The notes: a model not told the origin generated them from the sequence alone. Shown: positions 787-61,458, counted from the stretch's first letter. The stretch: DNA of 64,000 nt from a bacterium (GCA_004322275.1 SCTA01000017.1:11595-75594); one strand, 5' to 3'. Program-made: numbers and translations.

Positions 787-894
787 TCTTTTGCCGCGGG
801 GCTTCGTCGCTACTCGCTCGCGCTCCTTGACGTAGATACGCTACTGTCTGCGTCGCGCTCGCTGCGGGCTCCTTGCCCGGCGTCAAAATCCTTT
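787..894 (-). repeat. Diverged inverted copy of the intergenic repeat core
   Basis: The reverse complement reads ..caaggagcccgcagcgagcgcgacgcagacagtagcgtatctacg..gagcgcgagcgag.., alignable to the core of the copy at 919..1064. Confidence 0.6.
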
Positions 895-918
895 GCCGTG
901 TTTAAGACCTGCATTCCG

Positions 919-1064
919 GCATTATTGTTATACGTTGCTGGTGAAAACGCCGTCAGAAGCTCCGATTGCAAGGAGCCGCGCAGCGAAAGGACGAGGCAGT
1001 AGCAGCGCTACGGCGAGTCCTTGAGCGAGCACGCGACGCCGCAAGCGGACTTCTCACGGCGTTT
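919..1064 (+). repeat. Intergenic hairpin repeat, arm type I (direct-repeat partner of 2009..2154)
   Basis: This 146-nt copy is about 90 percent identical to 2009..2154 at a constant 1090-nt offset. The arms AAACGCCGTCAGAAG / CTTCTCACGGCGTTT are complementary. The core is gcagcgaaaggacgaggcagtagcagcgctacggcgagtccttgagcgag. Confidence 0.9.
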
Positions 1065-1069
1065 GTCCG

Positions 1070-2008: not shown

Positions 2009-2154
2009 GCATTATTGTTATATGTTACTGGTGAAAACGCCGTCAGAAGCTCCGATTGCAAGGAGCCGCGCAGCGAAAGGACGAGGCAGTAGCAGCGCTA
2101 CGGCGAGTCCGGAAGCGAATCGCGACACCGCAAGCGGACTTCTCACGGCGTTTT
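2009..2154 (+). repeat. Intergenic hairpin repeat, arm type I
   Basis: This is the direct-repeat partner of 919..1064 and ends 3 nt from the stop codon of 2158..2475. Confidence 0.9.
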
Positions 2155-5286: not shown

Positions 5287-6441
5287 TTACTTTTTTTCTC
5301 CGGGTTTTTCGACCCCCGCCGGAGTGGCGGCGGCGGTGTCCTCGAAATTCTCCCACCTTGTGTCGCTCGTCGAACTTATGCCGGAAATCTTTAGCGCCAG
5401 GTCGTCCGGGTTGGAGGACTGGCGCATGGCTTCCTTGTAGGAAATGAGTTTGTTGCTGAGCAGCATCAGAAGCGACTGGTCGAAGGTCTGCATTCCGTAG
5501 GAGGTATACCCCTCCGATATCGCCTGCCGTATCTCCTTGGTCTTCTCCGGTATCTCTATGCACTCGCGTATCCTGCCGGTGGAGACCAGAACCTCTACCG
5601 CCGGGACGCGCCCGGCCCCGTCGATGCGCGTAACCAGCCGCTGGGAGACGATTCCCTTGATGATGGAGGCGAGCTGCAGGCGCACCTGCTTTTGCTGGTA
5701 GGGCGGAAAGACGGAGATGATGCGGTTTATCGTCTCGCCCGCGTCCACGGTGTGGAGGGTTGAAAGGACGAGGTGGCCCGTCTCGGCGGCGGTGAGCGCC
5801 GTCTCGATCGTCTCGAAATCGCGCATTTCGCCGACGAGAATAACGTCGGGGTCCTGCCGGAGGGCGCTTTTGAGCGCGCCGGAAAAGCTCAGGGTGTCAA
5901 ACCCCACCTCGCGCTGGTTGATTATCGATTTTTTGTCCCTGTGGAGGAACTCTATCGGGTCTTCGATGGTCATTATGTGGCGCGTGGCCGCGGCGTTTAT
6001 GTGGTCTATCATCGCCGCGAGGGTGGTCGATTTGCCGGAGCCGGTGGTGCCGGTAACCAGAATCAGCCCACGGGACTCCTCCGCGAGCTTTTCGACCACC
6101 TTCGGCAAAAAGAGCTGCCGGATGTTCTTTATTTCCGTGGGAATTACACGGAAGACCATGCCTATGGAGCCGCGCTGCTGGAAGATGTTCAGGCGGAAAC
6201 GCCCGAGCCCCGCCACCCCGTAACCCATGTCGATTTCCCGGTTCCGTTCAAAGACGTCCCGCTGGGTCTCGGTCATAAGTTCTGTCGCTAGGGCCGCCAG
6301 CATATCGGGCGTGAGACGCCCCGTCTCCCTGTGAGGAAAAAGCTGGCTGTTGCGCCGGAAGATAGGCGGAAGTCCGGCCTTGAAATGGATGTCGGAGGCG
6401 TTTGCCTCAACCGCCACTCGGAGGACTTCGTTCAGCTCCAT
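5287..6441 (-). CDS. pilT: PilT-family type IV pilus retraction-type ATPase (paralog 1)
   Basis: It has Walker A GTTGSGKST, Walker B ILVGEMRD and the His box GHLVLSTLHT. The N-terminal ASDIHF motif is also present. Confidence 0.88.
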   Translation of the reverse strand: MELNEVLRVAVEANASDIHFKAGLPPIFRRNSQLFPHRETGRLTPDMLAALATELMTETQRDVFERNREIDMGYGVAGLGRFRLNIFQQRGSIGMVFRVIPTEIKNIRQLFLPKVVEKLAEESRGLILVTGTTGSGKSTTLAAMIDHINAAATRHIMTIEDPIEFLHRDKKSIINQREVGFDTLSFSGALKSALRQDPDVILVGEMRDFETIETALTAAETGHLVLSTLHTVDAGETINRIISVFPPYQQKQVRLQLASIIKGIVSQRLVTRIDGAGRVPAVEVLVSTGRIRECIEIPEKTKEIRQAISEGYTSYGMQTFDQSLLMLLSNKLISYKEAMRQSSNPDDLALKISGISSTSDTRWENFEDTAAATPAGVEKPGEKK

Positions 6442-26335: not shown

Positions 26336-26450
26336 AAGTTTTATAGGGGTTGTAAATTCCCCATGGAAACTAAATACTTTCAACCTTAAATTACACAGGC
26401 CCGCCTGCGTCGCGTCGTTGACAGGGCAGCGGGAAGGGCCATTCTTTCAA

Positions 26451-26545
26451 CCGGCAAACTATTTCGGCGAAGGGCAAGGAGTCCGCAGGGCGCGCGGTCG
26501 CAGGCAGTATCGTCTATACGCCAAGACCCGCGCCCGAGAAACGAC
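26451..26545 (+). repeat. Second repeat module (B-type)
   Basis: The sequence ccggcaaactatttcggcgaagggcaaggagtccgcagggcgcgcggtcgcaggcagta..cgcccgagaaacgac is nearly identical to 57325..57416. Confidence 0.85.
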
Positions 26546-26585
26546 GCAGCCGTTCGTCGAAAGAGAAAGCCGGGGCGGGAATACG

Positions 26586-28328: not shown

Positions 28329-28398
28329 CGCGCTCTCCTTTGACTGGAGATGTGAATTTCAAACAAAAATATTTCCTGCCATGCCTGAAGAGGTTACT

Positions 28399-28426
28399 GA
28401 AAACGGGGCTCGCAGCAGTTTTCAAG
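28399..28426 (+). repeat. Solo right-arm fragment of the type II repeat
   Basis: The sequence gaaaacggggctcgcagcagttttcaag matches the right arm of 32546..32672 and 46401..46528. Confidence 0.6.
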
Positions 28427-28517: not shown

Positions 28518-28749
28518 GAGGGAGGAGTTGCGTATACCGCAACCTGAATATACCTCTTCGCCCTCCTCTCTACAAGTAAAATAAAACGGCGTTATTAAAA
28601 TAAAAGGTTGATTTTAAGCCGCGTGCCCTTGTGATTATGAGTTACTTTCACAATTACAAAACCTCGTTAGCGCAAGCGAAACACACGCGCTCAATTGCAG
28701 TGTGAGGATTTAAAAACGGGGGAGATGTTCGGAAAATTCGCGGTGAGAC

Positions 28750-29084
28750 CATTTCGGCGAAGTCCAGGGAGTCCGCAGGGCGCGTACTGAAAAACAAAGT
28801 GGTTTTAATCGGGCGAGTTCACAGGCGCGGTTTTCCGTCTCCGGCGAGGAATCCCACAGCTATGGCGAGTTTTTGCCAACTCCGTCCGGCAAACTATTTC
28901 GGCGAAGGGCAAGGAGTCCGCGGGGCGCAGTTTGAAACGCAGTGGTTCTAATCGGCGCGTTCACAGGCGCGGTTTTTCCGCTCCCGGCGAGGAATCCCGC
29001 AGCGAGAGGGCGAGACAGTAGCAGCGCTACGGCGAGCCCTTGAGCGAGGACATGACGAAGCCGGGGGCGGAAAGGATGCGCCGG
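28750..29084 (+). repeat. Composite repeat array: two B-like/linker units of about 145 nt in tandem, the second fused to a full type III core element (about 28973..29084)
   Basis: The string atttcggcga at 28751 recurs at 28896, and ccggcgaggaatccc at 28841 recurs at 28984. The core is gagagggcgagacagtagcagcgctacggcgagcccttgagcgagg. Confidence 0.85.
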
Positions 29085-29095
29085 ATGGAAGCTTC

Positions 29096-32545: not shown

Positions 32546-32672
32546 GCCAAAAACATCGCGAGAAGCCCCGGTTACAAGGAGACGCGGAGCGAGAAGCGAG
32601 GCATAACCGGGTGTTAGGCGAGCTTCGAGTGAGCACGCGACGCAGTAAACGGGGCTCGCAGCAGTTTTTGGC
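32546..32672 (+). repeat. Intergenic hairpin repeat, arm type II with a divergent centre, between livG and livF
   Basis: The arms GCCAAAAAC..GAGAAGCCCCGG and CGGGGCTCGCAGCAGTTTTTGGC are complementary. The central cagtagcagcgctac is replaced by cataaccgggtgtta. Confidence 0.85.
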
Positions 32673-32679
32673 ATCCTCC

Positions 32680-33450
32680 TTAGTCCTCGCCCAGATAGGC
32701 CGCGATGACTTGTGGATTCTTCTGGACTTCCGCCGGGGTCCCTTCCGCGATGACCTCGCCGAAATTGAGCACCAGAATCATGTCGGAGACGTTCATCACC
32801 AGTTCCATGTCGTGCTCGACCATCACCACGGTGATTCCGCCGTCCACTATCTTCCTGACGAGGCTGCCGAGGGCGGAGGTCTCCTTCATGTTTAGCCCTG
32901 CGGCGGGCTCGTCGAGAAGGAGCACCTTCGGCCCGGCGGCGAGCGCCCGGGCTATCTCCACGAGGCGAAGGGAGCCGTAGGGGAGCGCCGAAGCGGAGGA
33001 CTCTATCTTGTCGGCAAGCCCTACGAACTCCAGCCACCTCTGGGCTTCCTCGCGGAGCGCCTTTTCGCGCCCGAAGTAGCGCGGGGTGCGGACAAGGGAA
33101 TCAAAGAGGGAGTAGCCGCCGTGCAGGTGGCAACCGGTGAGGACGTTGTCCATGATCGACATGTTCTGGAAGACTTCGAGATGCTGGAAAGTCCTCACTA
33201 TCCCGGCCTTCGCGACCTCGTGGGTCGCCCGCCCGGAGATATCTTTCCCCTCAATGGCTATCGAGCCGGTCTGGGGCTTGTAAAAACCGGTGATGACGTT
33301 GAAAAGCGAGGTCTTGCCTGCGCCGTTTGGTCCGATTATGGCGTGAAGGTCGCCCTTTTTCACCGCGAAATCCACCTCCGAGAGGGCGCAAAGGCCGCCG
33401 AAGGCGAGGGAGATTCCCTTTCCCGAGAAAAACGCGGACTCCGCGCTCAC
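32680..33450 (-). CDS. livG: Branched-chain amino acid ABC transporter ATP-binding protein LivG-type
   Basis: The motifs GPNGAGKTS, LPYGSLRLVEIARAL and LLLDEPAAG are present. The GTG start was chosen because it overlaps the livM stop (GTGA). Confidence 0.88.
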   Translation of the reverse strand: MSAESAFFSGKGISLAFGGLCALSEVDFAVKKGDLHAIIGPNGAGKTSLFNVITGFYKPQTGSIAIEGKDISGRATHEVAKAGIVRTFQHLEVFQNMSIMDNVLTGCHLHGGYSLFDSLVRTPRYFGREKALREEAQRWLEFVGLADKIESSASALPYGSLRLVEIARALAAGPKVLLLDEPAAGLNMKETSALGSLVRKIVDGGITVVMVEHDMELVMNVSDMILVLNFGEVIAEGTPAEVQKNPQVIAAYLGED

Positions 33451-35342: not shown

Positions 35343-36491
35343 CTACTTCATCATCCGCCAGTCGCCGCCGGTGATTTTTACCATAACAAAGGCCTCGTCC
35401 GTAAGGCCGTTATGATCCGGGGCGGAGAGATTGAACTCGCCCGCGGTGCCGTAGACCTTCCGGACCTTTTCGAGACCGTCCCTGATTGCGGCGGGCTCTG
35501 TGGAACCGGAAATCTTCACCGCTTCGGCTATCAGGAGGACGGCGTCCCGGACGTGGCCGCCGAAGGTGGAGACCTCCTGCTTGAAATTAGTCTCATAATT
35601 CTTTTTATATGTCGAGAGAACCTTTTTCTGGGGATGGTCTCCGGCGACCTGGTCCTCGACGATGAGCCTGCCCGCGGGCAGCATCACGCCCTCGGCGCTC
35701 TCGGCTCCGGCAAGTTCTATGAATTTCTTCGAGGCCACGCCGTGGCTCATATAGAGGGGGGTCTTAATGCCTAGCTGGACGCGGTTTCTCGTGACGACCG
35801 CCGGGCCGGGGTTGGTTCCCCAGCAGACGATCGCCTGCGCGGCGGTGCCCTTTATCTTGGTGAGCTGGGCGGTCATGTCGGTGTCCTTGGGCCCGAAGAC
35901 CTCGTCGGCGACGATCTCGATTCCCATCTCTTTGGCGATGGACAGAAGCTCTTCGCGGCCTGCCGCGCCGAAGCCGTCGGAGGCGGTGATTATCGCCAGC
36001 TTGCTTATGCCGGAACCCTGCGCGTGCTTGTAAATCTTCCTCACGGCGGGCTCGTCGCTGGGCGCGGTCTTGAAGACCCACTTCTTGACCGGCGAGGTGA
36101 TTTTCTTCGCGGCGGCGCAGGAGACCAGAGGTATCCCCGCCTCCTCGGCCTTGGGAACCACGGCGAGGGTGTTGCCGGTGGTGCTCGGCCCGACGATTAC
36201 AGCGACCTTGTCCATCTTTACCAGCCGGTCGAAGGCGGTCACCGCCTTTGTCGCGTCGGTCTCGTCGTCGTAGATTATGAACTCTATCTTCGCGCCGTTG
36301 ATTCCACCGGCGGCGTTGATCGCCTCTTCCACCATTTTCGCTGTGTTTTTCTCAGGCTCCCCTATGAAGGAGGCGGGGCCGGTGGCCGAGAAAATTCCGC
36401 CTATCTTTATCGTGTCGGCGGCGTTGGCGGCGGCAAAAATCGCAAGGACGCAAACTCCCGCCAGAAAATACCGGGAAAAATATTTTTTCAT
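35343..36491 (-). CDS. ABC transporter periplasmic amino-acid-binding protein (LivK/LivJ family), copy 1
   Basis: The signal peptide is MKKYFSRYFLAGVCVLAIFAAANA. The sequence TIKIGGIFSATGPASFIG shows the type I periplasmic binding fold. Confidence 0.88.
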   Translation of the reverse strand: MKKYFSRYFLAGVCVLAIFAAANAADTIKIGGIFSATGPASFIGEPEKNTAKMVEEAINAAGGINGAKIEFIIYDDETDATKAVTAFDRLVKMDKVAVIVGPSTTGNTLAVVPKAEEAGIPLVSCAAAKKITSPVKKWVFKTAPSDEPAVRKIYKHAQGSGISKLAIITASDGFGAAGREELLSIAKEMGIEIVADEVFGPKDTDMTAQLTKIKGTAAQAIVCWGTNPGPAVVTRNRVQLGIKTPLYMSHGVASKKFIELAGAESAEGVMLPAGRLIVEDQVAGDHPQKKVLSTYKKNYETNFKQEVSTFGGHVRDAVLLIAEAVKISGSTEPAAIRDGLEKVRKVYGTAGEFNLSAPDHNGLTDEAFVMVKITGGDWRMMK

Positions 36492-36597
36492 TTTTATCCT
36501 CCGGAGAAGCGGTATGCGAGAAAGAAAGAGCGCCGGTGCGGGGAACAAAAAAGAATCCGGGAACCCGGCCTGGACCGGGCTCCCGGCGCTTTGACGG

Positions 36598-37749
36598 TTA
36601 TTTCTGCATCTGCCAGTTGCCGCCCACGATCTTGACCATTACGAAGGCGTCTTCGTTAAGGCCGTTGTGATCTTCCGGGGAGAGGTTGAATTCTCCAGCG
36701 GTGCCGTAGAACTTTTTCACCTTTTCAAGCGCGTCGCGGATGGCGGCGGGCTCGGTGGAATTGGCGAGCTTTATCGCCTCGACCACCAGCATGAGGGAAT
36801 CGTAGGCGTGGCCGCCGAAGGTCGAGACATCCTGCTTGAAGGTCTCTTCGTAATTCTTCTTGTAGGTGGAGATTACCTTCTTCTGGGGGTGGTCGTCGGC
36901 TACCTGGCCCTCGACGATAAGCCTGCCCGCGGGGAGCATTATCCCTTCGGCGTTTTCAGCCCCGGCCAGCTCGATGAACTTCTTCGAGGCCACGCCGTGG
37001 CTCATGTAGAGGGGAATGGAGATGCCGAGCTGTACGCGGTTGCGGGCGATGACGGCGGGGCCGGGGTTGGTGCCCCAGCAGATTATCGCCTGCGCGTCGG
37101 TGCCCTTTATCTTCGTAAGCTGGGCGGTCATGTCGGTGTCTTTGGGCCCGAAAACCTCGTCGGCGACGATGTCGAGCCCGGCCGTCTTGGCGATCGCGAG
37201 AAGCTCCTCGCGTCCGGCGGCTCCGAAAGCGTCGGAAGCGGAGATGATGGCGATTTTGGTTATGCCCGCGCCCTTGGCGTGGTTGTATATGCGCCTGACC
37301 GCGAGGTCGTCGCTCTGGGGGCTCTTGAAGACCCACTTTTTGACGGGGGAGACTATCTTTTTGGCGGCGGCGGCGGAAAAGAGGGGTATCTGCGACTCTT
37401 CGGCCTTGGGCACGATGGCGAGGGTGCTGCCGGTGGTGCTGGGGCCTATAACCGCGACAACCTGATCTTTTTTGGCGAGGCGGTCGAAGGCGGTGACGGC
37501 CTTTGTCGCGTCGGTCTCGTCGTCGTAAACGATGACTTCAACGTTTTTGCCGAGAAGTCCGCCGCTCTTGTTTATCTGCTCTTCCAGCATCTTCGCGGTG
37601 TTTTTCTCGGGCTCGCCGAGGAAGGACGCGGGACCGGTGACGGAAAAGATCGCGCCGATGCGAATGGGGTCCGCCGCCAGCGCGGTGGTAGCCGATACGG
37701 CCAGAAGCCCGAGTCCCGCACAGAAAATTCTTGAAAGCCTTCCTGTCAT
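36598..37749 (-). CDS. ABC transporter periplasmic amino-acid-binding protein (LivK/LivJ family), copy 2 (close paralog of copy 1)
   Basis: It has a signal peptide, and long identical peptide runs are shared with copy 1 (for example GPKDTDMTAQLTKIKGT.AQAI.CWGTNPGPAV). Confidence 0.88.
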   Translation of the reverse strand: MTGRLSRIFCAGLGLLAVSATTALAADPIRIGAIFSVTGPASFLGEPEKNTAKMLEEQINKSGGLLGKNVEVIVYDDETDATKAVTAFDRLAKKDQVVAVIGPSTTGSTLAIVPKAEESQIPLFSAAAAKKIVSPVKKWVFKSPQSDDLAVRRIYNHAKGAGITKIAIISASDAFGAAGREELLAIAKTAGLDIVADEVFGPKDTDMTAQLTKIKGTDAQAIICWGTNPGPAVIARNRVQLGISIPLYMSHGVASKKFIELAGAENAEGIMLPAGRLIVEGQVADDHPQKKVISTYKKNYEETFKQDVSTFGGHAYDSLMLVVEAIKLANSTEPAAIRDALEKVKKFYGTAGEFNLSPEDHNGLNEDAFVMVKIVGGNWQMQK

Positions 37750-37930
37750 TGCTGTCTCCTTTCCAAGGGTTTTCGTTAAACCAAAAAAACTTGCCGCTTT
37801 ACGGGTCCGGCGCAAAGGCGGAAAAAACCTTCCATTCCCCGCCCCCGCCGCCTTTAAAGCGGCGTTTTAAAAACACCACGAAAATCAGGGGGTCAATCTA
37901 CCATGAGTCGCATTGACTGGCCAATAATAA

Positions 37931-44028: not shown

Positions 44029-45165
44029 CTACCCTCCGATCTTGTCCTTTACCCAGTCTTTCCAGCCTTTGGAGGAGGCGACTTTTTCGGTTTCGGCTTT
44101 GGGGAAGGTGGCGAGAAGCTCTTCGAGCTGCTTTTTGTGGGTCTTTGAGAGCCCCGCGGGGGTGCGGACGAAGACGTGGAGGTAGAGGTCGCCCCTAGCG
44201 TGCTTGCGGTGGAGCATGGGGATTCCGCGCCCCTTTATCTTCCGCATCTCGCCCGACTGGACGCCCTCTTCAAACTTTATCTTCACCGGTTCGCCCTCGG
44301 GCCCTTCGGTCTCAATCTGCCCGCCCTTAAGGGCGGTTAAAAGATCTATGTAGAGGGGGCCGTAGAGGTCGAGTCCGCGCCTGTCGAAGCGGTCGTTCTC
44401 CTCTTCGTGGAGCGAGATGTAGAGATCGCCCGGCATTCCCTCTGGTATCTGCTCGCCTTCGCCTTCGAGGCGGATTCTCTGCCCCGTCTCGATGCCGGGA
44501 GGGAAATCGACGTTCACCACCTTCTCTATCCTCGTCATTCCCCCGCCCTTGCACTCCTCGCAGGGTTTTTTTATCTTTTTGCCGTGGCCGTTGCATTCGG
44601 AGCAGGGGCCGGAGGTCTGGAAGGTTGCGAAACCCTGACGAATGACGCGGGTGACCGACCCCCTGCCTTTGCAGACGGCGCACACCTCCACGTCTTCCGG
44701 GGTCGCCGCGCCGCTGCCGTGGCACTCGGGGCAGGGGGCGGGCTTTTTTACCTTAATCTTGCGCGAGCCGCCCTCTATGACCTCTTTTAAATTGACGGAA
44801 ATCTCGTGGTGGAGGTCCCTGCCGCGCCGCTGCCTTCCCTGCCCGCCGCCGAAACCCATCTGGCCGAAGATGTCTCCGAAGATATCGCCGAAGGCGCTGA
44901 AGATGTCGGAAGAGTCGCCGAAACCGTGGTGCATCCCCTTCTGGTTGAGCCCCTCGACGCCGTGGAGATCGTACATCTGGCGCTTCTGGCTGTCGGAGAG
45001 GACCTCGTAGGCCTCGGCGCACTTTTTGAAAGCCTCCTCGGCCTCGCTGTCGCCGGGGTTGCGGTCGGGGTGGTACTTCATCGCCTGCTTGCGGTAGGCC
45101 TTTTTTATCTCGTCGGCGGTACAGCTCCGCTCGACCCCGAGAATCTCGTAATAATCCATCGCCAT
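44029..45165 (-). CDS. dnaJ: Molecular chaperone DnaJ
   Basis: It has a J domain (DYYEILGV...HPDRNPG), a G/F region and four CxxCxGxG zinc motifs. Confidence 0.95.
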
Positions 45166-45321
45166 TTCGTAGCGCCTGCAAATGTCAAGGGTGGACGGGC
45201 GAAAACCGCCCGGAAGGATGTGTTTAAATAAGGATTATTTGGCTATATGTCAAGCCGTTGCGAAAATTCCGGGGATTTTAACAGGAATTGGAGCGTCAAA
45301 AGGCAGTTTGTTCTTTAACCT

Positions 45322-45501
45322 CCGGCAAACTATTTCGGCGACCCGCCTTCGCTAAAGCTACGGCGCGGCAAGGCGCATTTACCGGCGCGTTTTTCCGTTT
45401 CCGGCGAGGAATCCCGCAGCGAGAGGGCGAGGCAGTAGCAGCGCTACGGCGAGCTCTTGAGCGAGGACATGACGACGCCGGGGGCGGAAATAACGCGCCG
45501 G
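45322..45501 (+). repeat. Composite repeat: B left arm + C module + type III core element (about 45391..45501)
   Basis: The sequence runs ccggcaaactatttcggcga..ccgccttcgctaaagctacggcg..ttttccgtttccggcgaggaatcccgcagcgagagggcgaggcagtagcagcgctacggcgag... It ends 2 nt from the dapF stop. Confidence 0.9.
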
Positions 45502-45503
45502 AT

Positions 45504-46325
45504 TTAGAGGTAAAATTCGCCTTCAAAGACAGTTGCAGCCGGCCCGGTCATGAATACATGGTTCGACTCCGCCTCCCAGTTTATCTTCAGCGTCCCGCCG
45601 TCGAGGATCACCTCCGATTCCCTTTCAGCCCTCCCGGTCCAGAAGGCGGCTACCGCCGTGGCGCAGGCCCCGGTGCCGCAGGCCAGCGTCTGCCCCGAGC
45701 CGCGCTCCCAGACGCGCATGCGAAGGCGCGTGCGGGAAAGCGCCTCCACAAATTCGACGTTGGTGCGTCGGGGGAAGAAGGGGTGGTTTTCTATCTGCGG
45801 CCCCATTTCGGCCACGGGGTATCTTTCGGCGTCGTCCACGAAGATTACGGCGTGGGGGTTGCCCATCGAAACGCAGGTAACGAGGACGCTGGTGTCGCCG
45901 AGGAGGAGGGGGTACTCCTTCACCACGCCGTCGGCGTCCACGGGTATCCGGCGGCCTTCAAGCTCCGGCTCGCCCATGTCCACCTCGACGAGGTCGCCGT
46001 AGAGCTTGCAGACCTGGAGTCCCGCGAGGGTCTCCACCCTTGCCTCGTCGCCGGTTATGAGGCCGTTGTCCTTTAGGTAGAGGGCGAAGCAGCGTATCCC
46101 GTTCCCGCACATCTCCACCTGGGAGCCGTCGGCGTTTATTATCTCCATCCTGTAATCGGCGACCTCCGAATCCCGGAGGAGGAGCACCTGATCGCACCCT
46201 ATCCCGAAATGACGATCGGCGAGTCTTTGCGCCAGCTCCGTCCAGTTTCCCGGATCGCTTTCGCGGCAGTCCACGAGTACGAAGTCGTTTCCGAGGCCGT
46301 GCATTTTGGTGAATTTGAGCTTCAT
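45504..46325 (-). CDS. dapF: Diaminopimelate epimerase
   Basis: The sequence KMHGLGNDFV...MCGNGIRC...ACGTGACA contains both catalytic Cys motifs. Confidence 0.95.
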   Translation of the reverse strand: MKLKFTKMHGLGNDFVLVDCRESDPGNWTELAQRLADRHFGIGCDQVLLLRDSEVADYRMEIINADGSQVEMCGNGIRCFALYLKDNGLITGDEARVETLAGLQVCKLYGDLVEVDMGEPELEGRRIPVDADGVVKEYPLLLGDTSVLVTCVSMGNPHAVIFVDDAERYPVAEMGPQIENHPFFPRRTNVEFVEALSRTRLRMRVWERGSGQTLACGTGACATAVAAFWTGRAERESEVILDGGTLKINWEAESNHVFMTGPAATVFEGEFYL

Positions 46326-46400
46326 CCGTTCCTTTCCCGAAATTTCATGGCGGCTTGACCAGAAAATCTTACTGGTCGATACTTAACATCCATGACTCTG

Positions 46401-46528
46401 TTGAAAAACGTCGTGAGAAGCCACGGTTTCAAGGAGACGCGGAGCGAGAGGGCGAGACAGAGCAGCGCTACGGCGAGCCCTTGAGCGAGCGCGCGACGCC
46501 GAAAACGGGGCTCGCAACAGTTTTTCAA
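46401..46528 (+). repeat. Intergenic hairpin repeat, arm type II, in the divergent dapF/rluD region
   Basis: The arms TTGAAAAACGTCGTGAGAAGCCACGG and CGGGGCTCGCAACAGTTTTTCAA are complementary. The core carries cagagcagcgctac. Confidence 0.9.
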
Positions 46529-46582
46529 GATCATTCTATACTTTCGCGGGAAATTATTGAAATCCCTTTGAGGGCGGTAAAA

Positions 46583-47566
46583 TTGGAAAAACGTCAGATA
46601 ATCGAAATAACCGCCCAGGCGGACTACCCGCGCCTCGACAGCTTTCTCGCCGGGGAACGCCCCGAGCTCAGCCGCTCCCGCATTCACAAGCTAATAGCCG
46701 GGGGGCTGGTAACCTTTGGGGGCAGGGTTCTTCGCCCCTCGCGAAAAGTCGCGCGCGGCGAGACCTTCCGCGTCGAGCTGCCGGAGCCGGAGCCCTCCTC
46801 CGCCCTTCCCGAGGAGCTGGCCCTCGACGTTCTCTACGAGGACGAGGATATCATCGCCATCGCCAAGCCGAGGGGGCTGGTGGTCCACCCCTCGCCGGGC
46901 CACCCCTCGGGCACGGTGGTCAACGCCCTTCTGCACCGCGTGGGGGACCTCTCCGGCATAGGGGGGGTGCTCCGGCCGGGTATCGTCCACCGCCTCGACA
47001 AGGACACCAGCGGCGTCCTTCTGGTGGCTAAAAACGACGCGGCGCACCGCTCCTTGCAGGAGAAGTTCAAGAGCCGGGAGATGGAGAAGGTCTACCTCGC
47101 CGTGGTGCTGGGAAATCTCTCGGGGGAAGGGGTCATCGACGCGCCGATAGGCAGGCACCCCGCCGACCGCAAGAAGATGGCGGTAAACGCACCCCGCTCG
47201 CGAAGCGCCCTGACCCGGTGGAAGGCCCTGATTCCGCTGAAAGGGGCGACTCTGCTTGAGGTCGTTATCGAGACCGGGAGAACTCACCAGATAAGGGTTC
47301 ATCTGGCCTCGACGGGCCATCCGGTGGTTGGAGACCCGCTCTACGGGGGCGTAAAAAGGGCGAAGGGGATAGCGGACTATGAAGCCAGGAGGAGGCTTTC
47401 TTCCGAAAAGATGCAGGCGCTTCACGCCTGGAAGCTCTCTTTTCGCCACCCCTCGGACGGCAGGGAGATAACCCTTACCGCGCCTCTTCCTTCAGAGCTG
47501 GCAGCTCTGATACGGGCTCTTGGTGGGGAAGGGTGGCCCCTTGAAGACCCGAAAGAAGCGCGGTAA
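46583..47566 (+). CDS. rluD: 23S rRNA pseudouridine synthase RluD-type
   Basis: It has an S4 domain (RLDSFLA...SRSRIHKLI) and the catalytic HRLDKDTSGVLL motif. The start is uncertain. I placed it at a TTG after a GAGGGCGG RBS-like site because the upstream ORF extension is made of repeat sequence. Confidence 0.8.
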   Translation: MEKRQIIEITAQADYPRLDSFLAGERPELSRSRIHKLIAGGLVTFGGRVLRPSRKVARGETFRVELPEPEPSSALPEELALDVLYEDEDIIAIAKPRGLVVHPSPGHPSGTVVNALLHRVGDLSGIGGVLRPGIVHRLDKDTSGVLLVAKNDAAHRSLQEKFKSREMEKVYLAVVLGNLSGEGVIDAPIGRHPADRKKMAVNAPRSRSALTRWKALIPLKGATLLEVVIETGRTHQIRVHLASTGHPVVGDPLYGGVKRAKGIADYEARRRLSSEKMQALHAWKLSFRHPSDGREITLTAPLPSELAALIRALGGEGWPLEDPKEAR

Positions 47567-51223: not shown

Positions 51224-51256
51224 TGAAAAAGGCCGCTCAATGAGCGGCCTTTCTTG
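51224..51256. terminator. Bidirectional hairpin terminator between rho and the convergent cytochrome gene
   Basis: The sequence is AAAAA-GGCCGCTCA-A-TGAGCGGCC-TTTCTT. Confidence 0.75.
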
Positions 51257-53261: not shown

Positions 53262-53290
53262 AAAAAGGCCGCTCATCGAGCGGCCTTTTA
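53262..53290. terminator. Hairpin terminator after 53309..53767, near-identical to the one at 51224
   Basis: The sequence is AAAAA-GGCCGCTC-ATC-GAGCGGCC-TTTT. Confidence 0.7.
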
Positions 53291-54017: not shown

Positions 54018-54431
54018 TTAAAACAGGAGCTCCGCGATTTCCCGGACGCTGCGCACGAGCTGTCCGTGGCCGCTGTGGAGGTAGACGCCGAGCTGGGCGA
54101 TGAGATCGACCGCGAAGGCGAACTGGGCGAGGGCGAAACCGGCTATTGTGAACTGGCTTACGCTGACGACGCCTATTCCGAATTGGGAGAGGGTGAAGAT
54201 TCCGGCGGCGAACTGGCCTATGGCTATTATTCCCCTTGCGGGCACCGGCATACGGTTCGCCCGGTACTTGAAGGAGACGTGGACGAGCGGCATTCCCATG
54301 AAGGTTCTTTGGCTCTTGTACTCGAAGCCGTAGCCGTCCCACTTTTCCCTGGCCGGGTAGGGGGCTCCGCACTGGGGGCACATGAAGGCGTTTTCCGAAA
54401 CCGTGCGCCCGCACTCCCGGCAGGTTTTCAT
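54018..54431 (-). CDS. Zinc-ribbon domain membrane protein
   Basis: The N-terminal zinc ribbon is CRECG..x..CPQCG. Repeated hydrophobic xQF segments follow (GQFAAGIF, SQFGIGVV, SQFTIAGF, AQFAFAV). The ATGA overlap with the upstream kinase stop suggests translational coupling. Confidence 0.6.
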   Translation of the reverse strand: MKTCRECGRTVSENAFMCPQCGAPYPAREKWDGYGFEYKSQRTFMGMPLVHVSFKYRANRMPVPARGIIAIGQFAAGIFTLSQFGIGVVSVSQFTIAGFALAQFAFAVDLIAQLGVYLHSGHGQLVRSVREIAELLF

Positions 54432-57142
54432 GCCGGCTGGGTCCCGTCGAGCACTTCGCGGATCTTGGCGCCGAGGGTTTTGAGGGAGAAGGGCTTTGAG
54501 AGGAAATTGACGCCTTCGTCGATAACTCCCCTGTGGGCTATCACGTTGGCGGTGTAGCCGGACATGAAGAGGCATTTAAGGCCAGGCTGTATGGCGGATA
54601 TCTTCTCGTAGAGCTCTTTTCCGTTCATTTCGGGCATTACCACGTCGGTTACGAGCAGGCCGATTGCGCCTTTGTTCTCTTCGGCGAGCCTGAGCGCCTC
54701 CGCAGGGCTTCCGGCGGCCAGCACGCGGTAGCCGAGCGAGGCGAGAATCCGCCTGCCGAGGCCGAGTATCGCTTCTTCGTCCTCGACGAGGAGAATCGTC
54801 TCGCTGCCCCCCAGGGTTACACTGCCGGGTTCCGCCGCAGTTTCGGCTTTTGCCAGCGTCCGGGGCAGGTAGATGCGGAAGGTGGTGCCGAGGCCGGGCT
54901 CGCTGTAGACGTTTATGAAGCCGCCGTTCTGCTTGACTATGCCGTAGACGGTGGAAAGGCCGAGCCCCGTGCCCTTGCCGCGTTCCTTGGTGGTGAAGAA
55001 GGGGTCGAAGATTTTCGCCAGTTCCTCTTTTTTCATGCCCGCGCCGCTGTCGCTGACGGCGAGAAGGACGTACTCTCCCGGCATGAAGCCCGCGTGGCCT
55101 TCGCAGTACTGTTCGTCCAGAGTCACGTTGTCGGTCTCGATCTCTACCTTGCCGACCCCCTGTATAGCGTCCCGGGCGTTGGTGACGAGATTCGCCATTA
55201 GCTGGTCTACCTGCGAGGGGTCGATTTTAACCCTCCAGAGGTCTTTCCCCGGCTTCCATTCGAGGTAGATGTCTTCGCCGATAAGCCGGCGGAGCATTTT
55301 CTGCATCGGCTCTATCGTATCGTTCAGGTCGAGCACCTTCGGAGCCACCGTCTGCTTGCGGGCGAAGGCAAGAAGCTGGCGGGTTATTTCCGCCGAGCGC
55401 TTCGCGGCCTTTTGTATCTCCTCAAGGTCCTCCCGTAGCGGATTTTGGGGCTCTATCTGCTCCAGCGCGAATTCGGCGTGGCCGAGAATGACCCCCAGCA
55501 TGTTGTTGAAATCGTGGGCGACGCCCCCCGCGAGCTGGCCGACCGATTCTATCTTCTGGGACTGAAGCAGCTGGCCCTCCAGCTTGGCCCGCTCCGCCTC
55601 CATGCGCTTTATTTCGCTGAGGTCGCGAAAAAAGCCCAGAGTGGCGGTCCCCTCGGGCAACTGTATCATGGCGATGTCGATCAGGAAGGGGAAAGTGGTT
55701 CCGTCCCGCCTGATGCCCGTGGTTTCATAGGCGTTTGGCACCTCTTCGCCCCTTTCGCGCCGTTTGTTGCGATCGATCAGTTCAGCGTGGGCTTCTTTCG
55801 GCAAAAGAGCGGTTATCGGGACGTTGACAAGTTCTTCCGGGCTGTCGTAGCCGAAGAGACGGGCATGGGCCGGGTTCACGAGGACGTGTTTTTGTCCTCT
55901 CGCTATGCCGATGCCCACCGGAGCGCCCTCGAAGATGGCGCGGAATCTCTCCTCGCTGGTCAGCAGGGCCTTTTCGGCCCTCTCCATGCGCTTTCTCTGA
56001 ACGAGCAGCGCGCCTATGAGCAAGGACTGAGCGATAAAGACGACAAAACCAAAAATTATAAATCCCTTGTACTGGTCCCAGAGAAGCGGGGGCCGGTCGA
56101 TGAAGACGCTCTCTTCGGGGAGGTTTTTCGGGTGGCCTCCCCACCGCTCGATCTGCTTCCAGTCGAAGACGGGAACCGCCCTGTTGTCGGCTACCGTCAC
56201 GGGCTTTTCGAGGACAAGTTTTTTGCCGAGGATGTCCAGCGCGCCGACGGCGGTTGTTTCGCCGAGGTCCTTTACGCTTATCACCGAGCCGCCGATGCCG
56301 CCGTTGGTGAGGTTGAAGTCGTAGAGCCCGAAGACGGGGGCGTTGGCCGCCCTGGTAATCATCCCCTCGACCTCGTAGGCGAGGGTTGCGCGGCCGTTCG
56401 TATCCTTGTTGTACTGGGTGAAGATGATTACGGAGAAGGGGGGGAGGGTTGAAACCCGGTGGAGCATCTCCGGAAGGGAGAGGCCTGTGGTGTATTCCTG
56501 CTCCACCTTCCCCTGCCAGGGCTGGGCGGTCTTTGACGCCTCGGAAGCCATCTTCCTGTCGGCCTCGCTCGCTCCGGAAACGAAGACCACCCGCCGGGTG
56601 GAAGGGAAAAGCTCGAACGCCCGCTCAAGGGTTCCCTTTATGTCGAAGTGCGCCACCTGGCAGAGGAATTTTCGCCCCGCAGCCTCTTCTTCGGAGGGCG
56701 GGGGCGCCTGCACGGTGATTACCGGAGCGGAGGGAGCCAGCTCTTTTCCTTCCCGCAGCAGAAACCACAGCGCGGGCTGCTGCACGGTGACGACAAGATC
56801 GAACTTCCTGGAGGAGTACTTCTCCCTTAGCAGGGAAAGCAGCTTTTGCGGGTACTCCCTGTCCTCCTGATGTCGCCCCAGATCCAGAAACTCGGAATAG
56901 ACGTCGTTTGCGCTTACCCCCCCCTTGCTGAGAGCGGTGAAAAAACCCTCGTTGAAAATCCTCACTCCCTGGCCCCCGTGGCCGTAGGAGTAAAGAAGGA
57001 GGATGCTTTTGGGGGCGGCTTCGGGTGAACCGGCGTGCTGCGCCCTTGCCCGAGCGGGGCAGGCGAAGTGCGCGCAGAGTAAAAGCAGCGTCGCCGCGAG
57101 AGCGAAAATACGCCTTGCCGACGCCATCCGGTAGTCACTCAT
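54428..57142 (-). CDS. Hybrid sensor histidine kinase/response regulator (periplasmic binding-protein-like sensor, PAS, HisKA, HATPase, REC)
   Basis: It has a signal/TM segment, then a second TM ([21 protein letters not shown]). The H box is VAHDFNNML, the G boxes are GTGLGLS, and the C-terminal receiver shows ILLVEDE...[11 protein letters not shown]. Confidence 0.9.
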
Positions 57143-57230
57143 TCTTCAAGCTTCCCACTGACCAAAGAACCCCTTTGAAGTGTCCGCAAGACGGCTATTC
57201 TACGAAAGAGTTTACGGCGCGGCCTTCGTA

Positions 57231-57589
57231 TCCGGCGAGGAATCCCGCAGCACCCGCCTTCTCTAAGGCTACGGCGGGGCAGGGCTTCCCGCCAGTTTGA
57301 TGCCGGTTTTTCGCTACGCTCAAACCGGCAAACTATTTCGGCGAAGGGCAAGGAATCCGCAGGGCGCGCGGTCGCAGGCAGTAGCGTGACTACGACGGGA
57401 GCGCCCGAGAAACGACCCCCGGTAAAAGATTCCGAGGGCAGGCTTCGCCCTTCGCTGAAACAGCCTCCCGGCGGCGGCTTTTCCGTTCCCGGCGAGGAAT
57501 CCCGGAGCGAGAGGGCGAGACAGTAGCAGCGCTACGGCGAGCCCTTGAGCGAGGACATGACGACGCCGGGGACGGAAAGGATGCGCCGG
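57231..57589 (+). repeat. Composite repeat array between the two kinase genes (A-left fragment, C, B, B-right arm, full type III element about 57479..57589)
   Basis: It shares long identical strings with 26451.., 45322.. and 28973... It ends 5 nt from the stop of 57595..61131. Confidence 0.9.
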
Positions 57590-57594
57590 ACCCC

Positions 57595-60500
57595 CTAGCT
57601 GTCGAGAACCTCACGAACCTTCAACCCCAAAGTCTTCAGCGAAAAAGGCTTCTGCAGAAAGCTCACTCCTTCGTCCAGTACTCCCCTGTGGGCTATTACG
57701 TCTGCGGTGTAGCCCGACATGAAGAGGCATCGAAGCCCCGGCTGGATGGCCAAAATCTTTTCGTAGAGTTCCTTGCCGTTGATCTCGGGCATCACCACGT
57801 CGGTGACTAGAAGGTCTATGGACCCGGCGTTTTCCTCGGCCAGCCTTATGGCCCTGGCCGGGCTGTTGGCCGCCAGCACGCGGTACCCGAGAGCCGTCAG
57901 GCTTCTCTTGCCCAGGTTAAGTATAGCCTCTTCGTCCTCTACGATCAGCACCGTCTCCCTGCCGCCCTTCGGAGCTTCGGCGTATTCGCAGAAATTATCC
58001 GACACGTCGGCGTGCGCCTTGGGGAAATAGATGCGGAAGGTGCTGCCGAGGCCGGGCTCGCTGTAGACGTTTATGAAGCCGCCGTTCTGCTTGACTATGC
58101 CGTAGACGGTCGCCAGGCCGAGGCCGGTGCCCTGGCCGACGTCTTTGGTGGTGAAAAAGGGGTCGAATATTCTGGTGAGCTTGTCTTTTTCTATGCCGCA
58201 GCCGTCGTCGGTGACGGTGAGGAGGACGTACTCTCCGGAGGTAAAGCCGGGGTGCCCTTCGCAGTAATGGCTGTCGAGCACCACGTTGTTCGTCTCTATG
58301 CTTACGTTTCCCGCGCCCGATATGGCGTCGCGGGCGTTGGTCAGTAGGTTCGCCAGAAGCTGGTCTACCTGCGAGGGGTCGATCTTCACCCTCCAGAGAC
58401 CGCTTCCCGGCTTCCAGTTGAGCGCTATGTCCTCGCCGATGAGGCGGCGGAGCATCTTCAGCATCCCCGAGACGGTGTCGTTCAGGTCGAGCACCTTCGG
58501 GGCCACGGTCTGCTTGCGGGCGAAGGCCAGAAGCTGGCGGGTGATGTCCGCCGACCGCTTCGCCGCCTTTTCGATCTCCTCCAGGCTCTCCCGGAGCGGA
58601 TTTTGGGGCTCGACCTGCTCCAGGGCAAGTTCGGTGTGGCCGAGAATTACTCCCAGCATGTTGTTGAAATCGTGGGCGACGCCTCCCGCGAGGCGGCCTA
58701 CCGATTCTATCTTCTGCGCCTGCAGAAGCTGGGACTGGAGGCGGTCCTTCTCCTCCTCGGAGCGCTTTTGCTCGGAGATGAAGCGCGCCTGCAGGACGTT
58801 CTGGTAGGCCATTGTGGAGATCTGTTTCGCCAGAGTGTAAAGGGTCTGCGCGACCCTGCGGAACTGCTCCTGCGACATCGGGGGGACTTCCCTGAAGGCC
58901 TCGATGAAACCCTCCTCGTCGGCCCCTATATCTCGCGCGTACTCCCGCATCTTCTCTTCGGTCTGCGATTCGTCCCTGACCTGCCCGATCAGCCAGTTGG
59001 CAACGTGCCTTCCGCCGACGGTTATGCTCGCGCCCGCGTCCCACAGCCCGCCGCTGAGACAGGGCCGCACCGTCGGCCCGGTGGCGTTGGCGCCTCCGAT
59101 TACCGCGTCCGAGCGGTAGCAGCTGGACAGTCCCTTTTCGGTCTTGCGGATTATCTCCGAACAGAGCCGGGTGAAGTTGCTGGGCCGGGTGAGGGGTTTT
59201 CCCTCGGGGTCGGTTATTATCGAGGCCACCCCGGCGGCGCTGGCGAACTGATCCTGTAATTTCTGCATCTCTTCGATATTGAGGAGTTCTTCAAACCCTA
59301 TGCCCTCCGCCTCGTCCAGCGGACGGGTCAGCTCTTCCATCCGGCTCTTTAAGGACAGCTCGGCGCGCTTCCTTTCGGTCACGTCACGAAAGACGCAGGC
59401 AAACTGCCCCTCCTTCGGCCGGTAGGCGAAGACCTCGAAATACTTGTCCAGTTCGCCGCTGTAGTTCTCGAACTGGGCGGGCTCCCCGGTAAGGGCGACC
59501 TTCCCGTAAAGCTCTATCCAGTAGGATTCGGTTCCGGGGAGCACTTCCAGCACCCGCTTCCCCAGTATTTTTTCCGCGCTCAGCCCGGTCTGGCGCTCGA
59601 AGGCGGGGTTTACCGACAAGAAGCGGTAATCGGCAGGACGCCCGTCTTCGTCGAGAACTATCTCGTGAATCGCGAAGCCGTCGAGCATGCCGTTGAAAAG
59701 GCCCCGGTAACCCGCCTCGCTCTCCTCTATCTTTTTCTGGGCCTCGTATTCCTGCGACTGGTCCCGGAAGACCAGCACCACGCCGGTTATCCTGCCCTCT
59801 TCGTCATGGATCGGCGCGGCGCTGTCGGCGATAGGCCTTTCGGTGCCGTCGCGGGAGGAAAGAACGGTGTGGTTGGCGAGCCCCACGATCCGCCCGTTGC
59901 GCACTACTTCGCGGACGGGATTCTCGACGGCCTTCCGCGTCTCCTGATTGAAGATGAAAAAGACCTCTTCGAGGGGCTTTTGGTACGCCTCCTCCTTACG
60001 CCAGCCGGTTAGCTCCTCGGCCACACCGTTGAGCAGCTCGACGCGGCCTTCGGCATCGGTGGTGATTACTCCGTCCCCTATGCTCATCAGGGTCGTGCCG
60101 TATCTCGCCTCGCTCTCCCTCTTGGCCTTTTCCGAGGCGAAGAGAACCCGGTACTGCGCCTTGGCGTTTCGCTCCCACACCGTCCTGACGGCGACGGCGA
60201 CGAAAACGCCGGTCCCCGCGAGCATGAAGAGAATGAGAGCCGAGCGGAACTGCCACTCGGCGAAGGCCTCGCTCATGTCCACCTTGGTGACCATGTGCCA
60301 GGCGGTGCCGGGAACCGGATTTAAAACGGAGAGCACCGGGACGCCGCGGTAGTCAATCCCCTGAAAGACCCCCTCCCTCCCCAGCACGGCCTGGACAGCG
60401 GGCAAATTCTCTCGCGTGAGGGGTATCCGGAACTTGAGGGCCGTACCGGTCCGGTGGCGAAGCTCGTTGAGGTAGAGGACGTCTTCGCCGTCGCGGCGCA

Positions 60501-61131
60501 CCAGCAGCGTCTCGGAGGAATCGCTCGGCACCGGCCAGCTCTGGATAAGGGGGTAGAGGAACTGGTTCGCGTCGTTTTGCAGGATGAGAAGGCCTATATA
60601 CCTCTGCGCTCCCTTCTCCTCGGTAAAAAGCGGCGCGACTACGCTGAGGTGGGGGTGTTGTCCGTCGTCCTCCGTGTGAATCTGCGTGAGAAAGGGCCTT
60701 CGCTGGGCGATGGCTTCCTGAATGGCGGGGAGGGCGATATCGTGGACGTGGCCCGGGTTGCCGCTCAGGGTGAAGACAACCTTGCCGGTTGAATCGGTTA
60801 AAAAGATGTCGTTGTAGGCATAGTGCATCTGCATCGCCCGAAGGCTCTGGCGGAGGTCTTCCGTCATCGCCTCCCGGCGGGGATTTTCAATCCAGCGCGC
60901 TATGGACTCACAATAGTAAGGGCTGTTCATGAAGAGCACGGCCTCGCTCAGCCTGTCCTCCCGCCAATGTACTATCTGGTCCACTTTCAAGCTGGCGATG
61001 GACTGGAGTTTTGCCTCCGTCTCCGCCCTGAGCTGGCGCTCCTGGGCGCGGTAGAACAAATAACCTCCCCCCAGAACAACCGCCATAGATATGGTAAAGA
61101 TCAAAGTCAGCCAGCGGGGATATTTGGCCAT
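57595..61131 (-). CDS. Hybrid sensor histidine kinase/response regulator (Cache-like periplasmic domain, multiple PAS, PocR-like domain, HisKA, HATPase, REC)
   Basis: Two TM segments flank a periplasmic domain of about 270 aa. The PocR-like segment is [20 protein letters not shown]...[30 protein letters not shown]. The H box is VAHDFNNML and a receiver lies at the C-terminus. Confidence 0.9.
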
Positions 61132-61270
61132 GAACGCCGTCCTCCAATTGCAAGGCTGAACAACTGCCAGCTTGATAAAAAACAATAGCCGGAAACACGG
61201 TTTGTCTAACCGCGCCTACGGGTTTTAAATACATCCATTCTCAATATCTTGTCCAGCAATTCTCTTTTTG

Positions 61271-61458
61271 CCCGCGCCCGGGAAACGACCCTTCTTCGCT
61301 CTACAAGCTACGGCCAGACGCAGCTTTGGAGTTTTTACAAGGCGCGGCTTTTCGTTCCCGGCGAGGAATCCCGCAGCGAAAGGGCGAGACAGTAGCAGCG
61401 CTACGTGGAGCCCTTGAGCGAGGACATGACGACGCCGGGGACGAAAAGGATGCGCCGG
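61271..61458 (+). repeat. Composite repeat (B-end/C-like fragment + type III element about 61348..61458)
   Basis: The sequence runs cgcccgggaaacgaccc..ctacaagctacggcc.., then cttttcgttcccggcgaggaatcccgcagcgaaagggcgagacagtagcagcgctacgtggagcccttgagcgagg. It ends 6 nt from the pirin stop. Confidence 0.9.

Follow-up and report, generated by a model that had tools for sequence, protein, structure and literature searches.

The stretch analysed here comprises 64,000 nucleotides (nt) of a bacterial contig (GCA_004322275.1, SCTA01000017.1:11595-75594; referred to below as the window, with positions counted from its first letter). Its source lineage is uncultured Desulfobacterota, and the best named relatives of its DapF belong to Deferrisomatales (64-68% identity). 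According to Pfam the genes next to the features considered here are of housekeeping character: AlaRS, MeaB, Usp, LivG/F-like ABC ATPases, DapF, DnaJ, histidine kinases, and pirin. An initial annotation made from the sequence alone proposed that the spacers between them harbor a dispersed family of hairpin-forming repeats, with one core embedded in several self-complementary arms, and this description stands: twelve copies are recognized by a covariance model and nine of them fold. We argue that these copies probably represent non-autonomous mobile DNA repeats resembling MITEs (miniature transposable elements with inverted repeats), with four arm subfamilies built around one central module of ~50 nt, an interpretation which is secure for core-sharing relatives of several phyla.

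The core was traced in the window with a 19-mer, GTAGCAGCGCTACGGCGAG, which gave 8 matches at up to three mismatches allowed vs 0.04 expected, and repeat finding recovered the families enumerated in the initial annotation. A covariance model was built as well (model R1, trained on cross-phylum copies and run on the window with filters off) and returned 12 matches at E <= 6e-5, the next one appearing only at E = 0.005 (Table 1). Ten core copies are on the plus and two on the minus strand; spread over 10 intergenic regions and 94-146 nt long, all of them lie between called genes and are devoid of protein-family matches (gene calls and Pfam). The two copies reported inside the liv operon are indeed located between genes of the liv ABC transporter. 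The shared module sits inside imperfect palindromes of ~120 bp, the arms of which belong to four types: types I-III are as initially described, and the accessory "module B" makes a fourth (type B), placed round a variant core and complete as a hairpin in one copy, so that the count of three has to be extended. "Module C" is a small separate hairpin. Fold computation found every arm type self-complementary out to its ends, with long-hairpin folds in 9/12 copies ranging from -51 to -62 kcal/mol (z from -4.1 to -5.6); decayed or truncated copies lacking the full fold are those at 46401, 787-880, and 57323. The most constant letters, variant cores included, are GTAG and CTAC.

Some copies bear traces of rearrangement. 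The two type I copies also share a 26-nt stretch that extends past the hairpin at one end only, and they may have originated from duplication of a larger unit. Truncated copies are collected in three nests (28739-29086, 45321-45501, and 57203-57590), a pattern typical of sites where transposons land. In two places a type III left half stands alone (28812-28860 and 57203-57251), and both halves end at an identical point, directly after CCCRCAGC and immediately before the core's GAGAGGGCGAG, and this common cut point suggests a recurrent break or recombination site.

Table 1. Repeat copies and fragments in the window (bits and E refer to the covariance model; gaps are counted from hairpin end to stop codon)
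Feature	Position	Strand	Match centre	Stop (gap)	Structure, context and scores
Degenerate copy, variant core GTAG-CGTAT-CTAC	787-880	-	~835(-)		31 nt past stop of (+) TraB-family gene; match 802-868(-), 29.4 bits, E 2.5e-5; weak fold, z -0.9
Type I copy	919-1064	+	~1008	1070 (5 nt)	left extension 26 nt (919-944), hairpin 945-1064; arms AAACGCCGTCAGAAG / CTTCTCACGGCGTTT; -59.9 kcal/mol, z -4.85; 48.3 bits
Type I copy 2	2009-2153	+	~2098	2158 (4 nt)	hairpin 2035-2153; -56.3 kcal/mol, z -5.27; 41.4 bits
Type B copy, apex GTAT-CGTCT-ATAC	26449-26573	+	~26516		complete hairpin ~12 nt upstream of meaB start codon (26586); -53.6 kcal/mol, z -4.54; 35.5 bits, E 7e-7
Solo type II right-arm fragment	28381-28423	+			repeat finding
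Nest of truncated pieces	28739-28955	+			type B left fragment 28739-28810; type III left half cut directly after CCCACAGC, 28812-28860; type B left half 28884-28955
Type III copy	28969-29086	+	~29027	29096, Usp gene (10 nt)	-60.3 kcal/mol, z -4.91; 50.3 bits
Type II copy	31627-31750	-	~31686(-)	31761, livF-like (10 nt)	fills space between this stop and next gene's ribosome-binding site; -59.4 kcal/mol, z -4.5; 51.1 bits
Type II copy, covarying apex TAAC-CGGGT-GTTA	32537-32679	+	~32612	32680 (7 nt)	hairpin 32546-32672; inverted repeat reaches AGGAGG/CCTCCT; -51.3 kcal/mol, z -4.1; 28.7 bits
Type B left-end fragment and module C	45321-45372	+			fragment 45321-45340; module C 45341-45372, contains AAGCTACGGCG
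Type III copy in ATTTA repeat	45377-45506	+	~45444	45504 (1 nt)	hairpin 45382-45501; repeats 45377-45381 / 45502-45506; -59 kcal/mol, z -4.23; 51.9 bits
Decayed type II copy, apex minus one base	46401-46525	+	~46468		divergent dapF / pseudouridine-synthase promoter region; 2 mismatches to 19-mer; z -1.1; 30.9 bits
Nest	57203-57440	+	~57390		type III left half cut directly after CCCGCAGC, 57203-57251; module C 57252-57283; right-truncated type B, apex GTAG-CGTGA-CTAC, 57323-57440; 28 bits; no overall hairpin fold
Type III copy	57474-57590	+	~57532	57595, PocR histidine kinase gene (4 nt)	-61.9 kcal/mol, z -5.58; 51.1 bits
Type III copy, GGCGAG -> GTGGAG	61343-61459	+	~61401	61465, pirin (5 nt)	-59.2 kcal/mol, z -4.98; 32.3 bits

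The reported docking of eight copies at the stops of minus-strand genes was reproduced. In each case 0-10 nt separate the hairpin end from the upstream gene's stop codon, if one takes into account that the gap at stop 32680 shrinks from 7 to 0 with the AGGAGG/CCTCCT extension counted and the gap at stop 45504 from 1 to 0 with the duplication counted. Chance of docking so close, computed from the free intergenic room, is ~0.03-0.4 per locus, giving a product of ~3e-7. Two docked copies are bracketed by perfect or near-perfect direct repeats. A perfect repeat, ATTTA, surrounds the type III copy 45382-45501, its right unit containing the dapF stop (TTA, 45504-45506). The type II copy 32537-32679 is flanked on the mRNA (minus) strand by TAA, which is the stop of the livG-like gene (32680-32682), and TGA (plus-strand readings: left flank TCA, right flank TTA); this near-perfect duplication lies directly against the AGGAGG/CCTCCT inverted repeat. 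The ends of the latter copy (32537-32545 and 32671-32679) correspond to a Shine-Dalgarno-like hexamer and its complement, the hexamer being placed directly past the livG stop on the mRNA strand. Elsewhere docking is not confined to the ends of protein genes: one copy is located directly 3' of a 5S rRNA gene (locus L032, ~5777), one against the 3' end of a tmRNA gene (L014, ~7350), and one just 5' of a tRNA gene (L130, ~2540).

Orthologous spacers of related genomes were compared at the dapF locus. The dapF-dnaJ and rluD-dapF spacers occupy 338-374 nt in the window vs 120-160 nt, element-free, in the two closest relatives available, with DapF identity of 68-75%, and the covariance model gave no match in the dapF loci of those relatives. 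Both dapF-flanking sites are empty in L123; in L122, the contig of which ends 6 nt past the dapF stop, the rluD-dapF site is empty. Although at 68-75% protein identity the exact empty-site junctions are beyond alignment, the empty orthologous spacers are consistent with insertion in the lineage of the window.

Outside the window the core is widespread. Contigs representing one genome per GTDB species contain the exact 19-mer at least 120 times, with about ten phyla among the matches listed; by record title these include Gemmatimonadota (with Longimicrobiales), Myxococcota, several Desulfobacterota, Bdellovibrionota (with Oligoflexales), Lentisphaerota, Comamonadaceae and other Burkholderiales, Salinisphaera, Rhodothermales, Sumerlaeota, two Bacillota bins, and one Actinomycetes bin. 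Several of the hosts are in culture. Many of the listed matches are at contig ends and several fall in one genome bin, as expected of repeats. A contig labelled as a Thermoplasmatota archaeon bin (L095) also carries a typical copy, which may reflect bin contamination rather than an archaeal host. The flanks are fully different among lineages, yet in every lineage they pair to form a long hairpin whose tip is the 19-mer, and the low-G+C Bacillota copy combines A+T-rich arms with the unchanged G+C-rich apex. Carriage by phages or plasmids was rejected: 2.9 million viral contigs contained 0 matches to the 19-mer, and the lone plasmid query, the 66-nt Comamonas core region, gave chance matches only. 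Scanning metagenomes with a type III 20-mer yielded one true relative, L130; its row in alignment A2 has faulty coordinates and is to be disregarded. In three Comamonas species a copy occupies the same locus, flanked by a MoxR-type AAA gene and a DUF5682 gene, and two further copies of Comamonadaceae share the site after purH.

It is the termini of relatives in several phyla that identify them as MITEs. Aligned with flanks, core-bearing elements have sharp boundaries, inverted-repeat termini and uniform lengths, namely 180 bp in a Desulfobacterota group, 160 in Lentisphaerota, 175 in Myxococcota, 177 in Bdellovibrionales, and 220-320 in Gemmatimonadota. Direct-repeat flanks TTA...TTA are present at 11 of the 16 Desulfobacterota loci (L026, L034, L041, L045, L057, L064, L066, L068, L089, L091, L098, L099, L102, L103, L110, and L115); flanks in Lentisphaerota read TTAG, CTAA, or TTAA, with YTAR duplication at 5/10 loci, and several copies from Gemmatimonadota and Myxococcota have CTAG duplications. 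At the same 16 loci TTA stands on the deposited top strand in 14/16 left and 12/16 right flanks irrespective of element orientation, where arbitrary contig orientation would predict a split of ~50:50; GC skew is positive in 12/16 blocks. The Gemmatimonadota end, CTAG followed by GAGCCTGTCCGAGTAA..., coincides with the ends of annotated IS1182-family elements (ISMno8-like) on Methylobacterium plasmids. The latter are 1.47 kb long, encode a 444-aa transposase with DUF772 and DDE_Tnp_1, are bounded by GAGCCTGTCCGAGTAA and TTACTCGGAC(A/G)GGCTC, and have flanks CTAG...CTAG of their own. An end of this IS1182-like type, GAGCTTGTCCGTAAATAAG, is also present in Desulfobacterota. Gemmatimonadota elements (220-320 bp; L060 5179-5500 and others) are asymmetric and include a second degenerate core in inverted position (GACGTAGCTACGGC), the covariance-model match in L060 being at 5382-5443. 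Flanking open reading frames (ORFs) terminate at a constant spacing from the apex (Desulfobacterota, 91 and 89-90 nt; Gemmatimonadota, 79-81 nt). This spacing equals the element boundary, and thus the flanking triplet serves the neighboring gene as its stop codon. In Comamonadaceae the apex and the stop are 55-58 nt apart, which places the stop 2-8 nt outside the element. The relatives are therefore plainly mobile MITEs with terminal inverted repeats and duplications, and the arm types in the window are best read as MITE-like subfamilies, an outcome which the initial annotation itself had named as refuting its structural idea.

For the window copies a succession of events may be envisaged in which a DDE transposase of IS1182/IS5 kind acting in trans moves, or has moved, the elements, cutting in a staggered manner at T(A/T)A-type (TWA) targets. 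In a genome of 60% G+C such triplets would be concentrated at and just past stop codons; TTA/TAA indeed occur 6.3 times per 100 nt in the zone of the stop plus 12 nt vs 2.5 in the remaining intergenic DNA and 1.05 within genes. An element landing in a stop codon or next to it would do no harm because the duplication regenerates the stop, and selection against promoter damage together with target choice would leave the copies docked at gene ends. Selection would preserve the central module for the fold adopted by one particular strand, presumably as a hairpin of RNA or single-stranded DNA to which some conserved factor binds. We propose that a TWA/YTAR target coinciding with stops accounts for the docking better than an RNA function at the 3' end does. 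If so, there is a mechanical reason why some bacterial repeats hug stops, gene ends being safe landing pads.

A number of observations weigh against this interpretation. Among window copies, duplications amount to one perfect and one near-perfect case, with none clear for the others, and 6/8 docked copies stand 4-10 nt off the stop rather than on it. The 2.6-fold TWA enrichment near stops is too small on its own to account for 8/10; target choice thus helps docking but is insufficient alone, and we infer that selection against promoter-near insertions supplies the remainder. Termini of the window elements (CCGGCGCG..., AGGAGGTTGCC..., AAACGCCG...) are not IS1182-like; they match no insertion-sequence end in the plasmid collection, and no partner insertion sequence was found for the arm types of the window. 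The window contains no transposase, and none recurs beside copies elsewhere (~2,800 ORFs, 120 loci): all-against-all clustering of these ORFs, performed for a mobilizing gene beside the copies, returned only ABC ATPases, histidine kinases, and local orthologues. Comamonas copies are few and positionally conserved, which suits a functional element that has been retained better than an active transposon. Finally, DDE cut-and-paste gives no reason for a strand-specific fold and leaves unexplained both the constancy of the apex across phyla and the 10:2 strand bias in the window.

Structural features of the central module deserve separate consideration. In the 7 Comamonadaceae copies 22/44 pairs of a hand-drawn three-way structure have changed on both sides, and 91% of cells are paired vs 77% after shuffling and 32-39% with partners slid. 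As copies at orthologous positions show compensatory changes, pairing has been maintained through vertical descent, and the claim that pairing persists while the arm sequence changes proved correct. In 95% of 109 copies the purine-rich strand folds ~11 kcal/mol better than its complement (~9 without the apex), and the strand comparison gives 454 vs 296 G·U pairs. Non-Watson-Crick positions in the Comamonadaceae helices are G·T (10) and G·A (15) vs A·C (2) and C·T (2). Both flanks of the apex are purine-rich (62-66%) and nearly T-free on the same strand, hence this part is no DNA palindrome. The module reads AG-Y-C GTAGC AGC GCTAC GG CGAG, and its apex closure, C-G-A-G opposite C-G-A-G, seems by eye to form G·A pairs in tandem, enclosed by C-G pairs. 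In Gemmatimonadota the G·A closure is longer, CGACGACGAG / CGAGGAGGAG, and one Salinisphaera copy is fully Watson-Crick (CTCG/CGAG). Variants of the apex keep the stem: GTAAT-GAAA-ATTAC in L130, a close type III relative, TAAC-CGGGT-GTTA at 32600, and GTAG-CGTGA-CTAC in type B. A test of the 6-bp helix beside the core in 50 lineages was moderately positive (4.2 vs 3.4 pairs), because many lineages use G·A pairs there. The central module thus seems to be selected as a single-stranded structure. The structural constraint on the core is real, but the opposition of selection on structure to copy-paste in the initial annotation was a false choice, given the mobility of the relatives. Possible roles of the fold include an RNA transcribed from the purine-rich strand, a single-stranded DNA hairpin in replication or repair, and a structure bound by a host or transposon factor. 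Tentatively, and with more doubt than confidence, the apical module (8-bp stem, AGC loop, tandem G·A closure, and purine-rich T-poor strand) might be regarded as a functional single-stranded motif in itself, either a protein ligand or a catalytic or regulatory RNA, which was spread through at least ten phyla by two or more vehicles (IS1182-type MITEs and hairpin repeats without such ends) and retained at fixed loci in Comamonas. In that case few undescribed structured elements of bacteria would be as widely distributed.

The same data could imply that the element is primarily a structured RNA under selection—a stabilizer in 3' untranslated or intercistronic regions, a processing site, or a set of small RNA genes—with mobility being incidental. 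Compensatory changes, found also between positional orthologues of three Comamonas species, accord with this possibility, as do the one-strand G·U/G·A bias, the GNRA-type loop variant of L130, covarying apex stems in Geobacter metallireducens (GTGGC/GCCAC and GTACC/GGTAC), where a sister family is annotated as "predicted regulatory short RNAs" (Aklujkar et al., 2009), and stop-adjacent docking, which recalls REP-type protection of mRNA 3' ends. We nevertheless consider it unlikely. Orientation relative to neighboring genes is about random across phyla, within the noise of crude ORF calls and with the asymmetric Gemmatimonadota elements biased by the 200-nt cut-off, and in 10/12 window copies the mRNA would receive the weaker-folding complementary strand. 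No terminator-like or promoter-like signals accompany the 5 copies in the regions scanned (700-2300 and 45100-46750). Taken together, random orientation, the weaker strand in mRNA and the lack of flanking signals make a purely cis-acting mRNA role unlikely. Moreover, neighboring genes are functionally unrelated, and hallmarks of DNA transposons are clear in relatives. Rfam gave no match at any threshold tried: at the gathering threshold of release 15 there were 0 matches in the window and none overlapping elements in 18 loci of other phyla, and in E-value mode (E<=10 for the window stretch, E<=1 in 12 loci) nothing appeared at the elements, the only matches being microRNA-precursor hairpin models and one weak small RNA.

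Considerably less probable is a REP/REPIN-like system, in which an HUH tyrosine transposase present in single copy (RAYT) recognizes the GTAG...CTAC apex and acts on the hairpins in the form of single-stranded DNA. The constancy of these letters even in variant cores, the strand-specific fold expected of a single-stranded substrate, BIME-like mosaic nests, the exclusively chromosomal occurrence, and REPIN-like inheritance at orthologous positions, at least in Comamonas, would suit such a system. GTAG here, however, forms the apical stem of a 120-nt hairpin instead of lying 0-2 nt 5' of a hairpin foot; mobility of REP and IS200 type leaves no duplications, whereas the relatives have CTAG/TWA duplications and DDE-type terminal repeats; and recurrent neighbors of the copies include no Y1 transposase. 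The idea that the repeats carry the core as an operator in double-stranded DNA, or as the target of a nucleoid or bending protein (13-bp palindrome GTAGC N3 GCTAC), fits the perfect 5+3+5 palindrome, constant across phyla, and the central protein sites of other MITE-like repeats (Correia elements with IHF, Caulobacter CIR repeats with CcrM sites), but it is highly improbable given a covarying stem with a loop of 3-6 nt and variable sequence, which a dimeric operator would not tolerate, purine-rich T-poor flanks on the same strand that are therefore not two-fold symmetric, and long arms pairing with compensatory changes.

Several further identities were considered and discarded. A SECIS or other recoding signal is at variance with the stops, which are TAA and TAG as well as TGA, and with most copies being antisense to the gene. 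Integron attC sites, which occur in cassette arrays, display the opposite pattern, with conserved R and L boxes at the ends and a variable centre instead of a constant centre with variable ends, and the flanking genes here are housekeeping. Intrinsic terminators were rejected since no terminator-like site was found at 5 copies (700-2300 and 45100-46750); the type I stem is trailed by just 3-4 T.

Other features of the window stand apart from the repeats. At 1975-2001, 51226-51252, and 53262-53289 an A-run, a G+C hairpin and a T-run (AAAAAGGCCGC...GCGGCCTTT) are arranged like bidirectional intrinsic terminators, unrelated to the repeat family. Two hybrid histidine kinase genes (54428-57142 and 57595-61185), with a repeat nest between them, are paralogues, as follows from 300-nt stretches 74-79% identical. 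Adjacent ORFs of ~400 aa (35343-36548 and 36598-37815), 74% identical over 300 nt and located beside liv permease genes, probably encode duplicated substrate-binding proteins.

As to known systems, Chunjie, a MITE found in Geobacter uraniireducens, likewise belongs to a related lineage and is tolerated inside operons, but it is A+T-rich, 178-235 bp long, and equipped with 21-bp terminal repeats and 9-bp direct repeats, the base composition and direct repeats having led to its rejection as the identity of the family. The ERIC/BIME/REP-like logic perceived in the initial annotation is upheld as a resemblance. ERIC/IRU and Correia (CREE) elements are imperfect palindromes of 100-160 bp, found in either orientation near gene ends, MITE-like, transcribed into hairpins, and associated with TA duplications; ERIC also has a highly conserved central inverted repeat. 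To our knowledge, ERIC is restricted to Enterobacteriaceae/Vibrio and Correia to Neisseria, and we know of no G·A-rich strand-specific core in either; no sequence relationship was seen, though none was tested for here. With REP/BIME/REPIN-RAYT systems the family shares mosaic intergenic arrays, the GTAG motif, a strand-specific fold, and apparent vertical inheritance. REPs differ in being short and free of duplications, with hairpins of 20-65 nt (REPs 20-40 nt) and GT[AG]G 0-2 nt 5' of the hairpin foot (PMC6006769), compared with GTAG in the apex stem of a ~120-nt hairpin here.

MITEs of the IS1182/IS5 superfamily, the bacterial counterparts of Tourist/Harbinger MITEs, are closer. Like them, the window family is small, non-coding, hairpin-forming, multicopy, and intergenic, and core-sharing relatives possess IS1182-identical terminal repeats with CTAG, YTAR, or TWA duplications. 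MITEs normally conserve their ends, not their middle; here it is the centre that is conserved and the ends that vary by lineage and subfamily, and the window copies depart further in having ends that are not IS1182-like and no partner transposase found. CTAG duplication is reported for IS5 (PMC10379815), and 3-bp duplications are generated by canonical Harbinger elements (PMC12730594). That Comamonas shares a strand-specific G·A-paired centre with Gemmatimonadota, Lentisphaerota, and a low-G+C Bacillota bin implies an undescribed trans-acting partner or function.

The initial annotation did not recognize the sequence as a described family, which holds for Rfam, but the family is not wholly undescribed. 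Full-text searches with the core and terminal repeats led solely to the genome paper of G. metallireducens (Aklujkar et al., 2009; PMC2700814), in which Gmet_R1001-R1024 are listed as "Group 1 predicted regulatory short RNAs" and "24 predicted short RNA elements" are aligned in Additional file 4 with a central palindrome GRCGTAGCGCTGCTACGCC. The 13-nt palindrome is identical (GTAGCGCTGCTAC, the reverse complement of GTAGCAGCGCTAC in the window), and these elements too are intergenic, multicopy, ~113 nt long, and similar in their inner arms (CCCGCAGGAGAG... / ...AGCGACGAGGAC). Their apex stem covaries (GTGGC/GCCAC, GTACC/GGTAC) and their loops vary in length (PMC2700814). The differences lie next to the apex, which is followed by GCC-CACAAG in place of GGCGAG, and the 3 nt on either side are dissimilar (CA...GG CGAG in the window), so by sequence the Gmet_R elements appear to be a sister family, not the same one. 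The paper offers alignments only, from four Desulfobacterota genomes, and proposes no function, mobility, or duplications (PMC2700814). The family in the window is best classed as MITE-like intergenic hairpins, with the "group 1 short RNA" repeats of Geobacter as its sister, and, if the MITE interpretation is right, "mystery multicopy sequences" of the Geobacter genome papers become linked to a transposon family.

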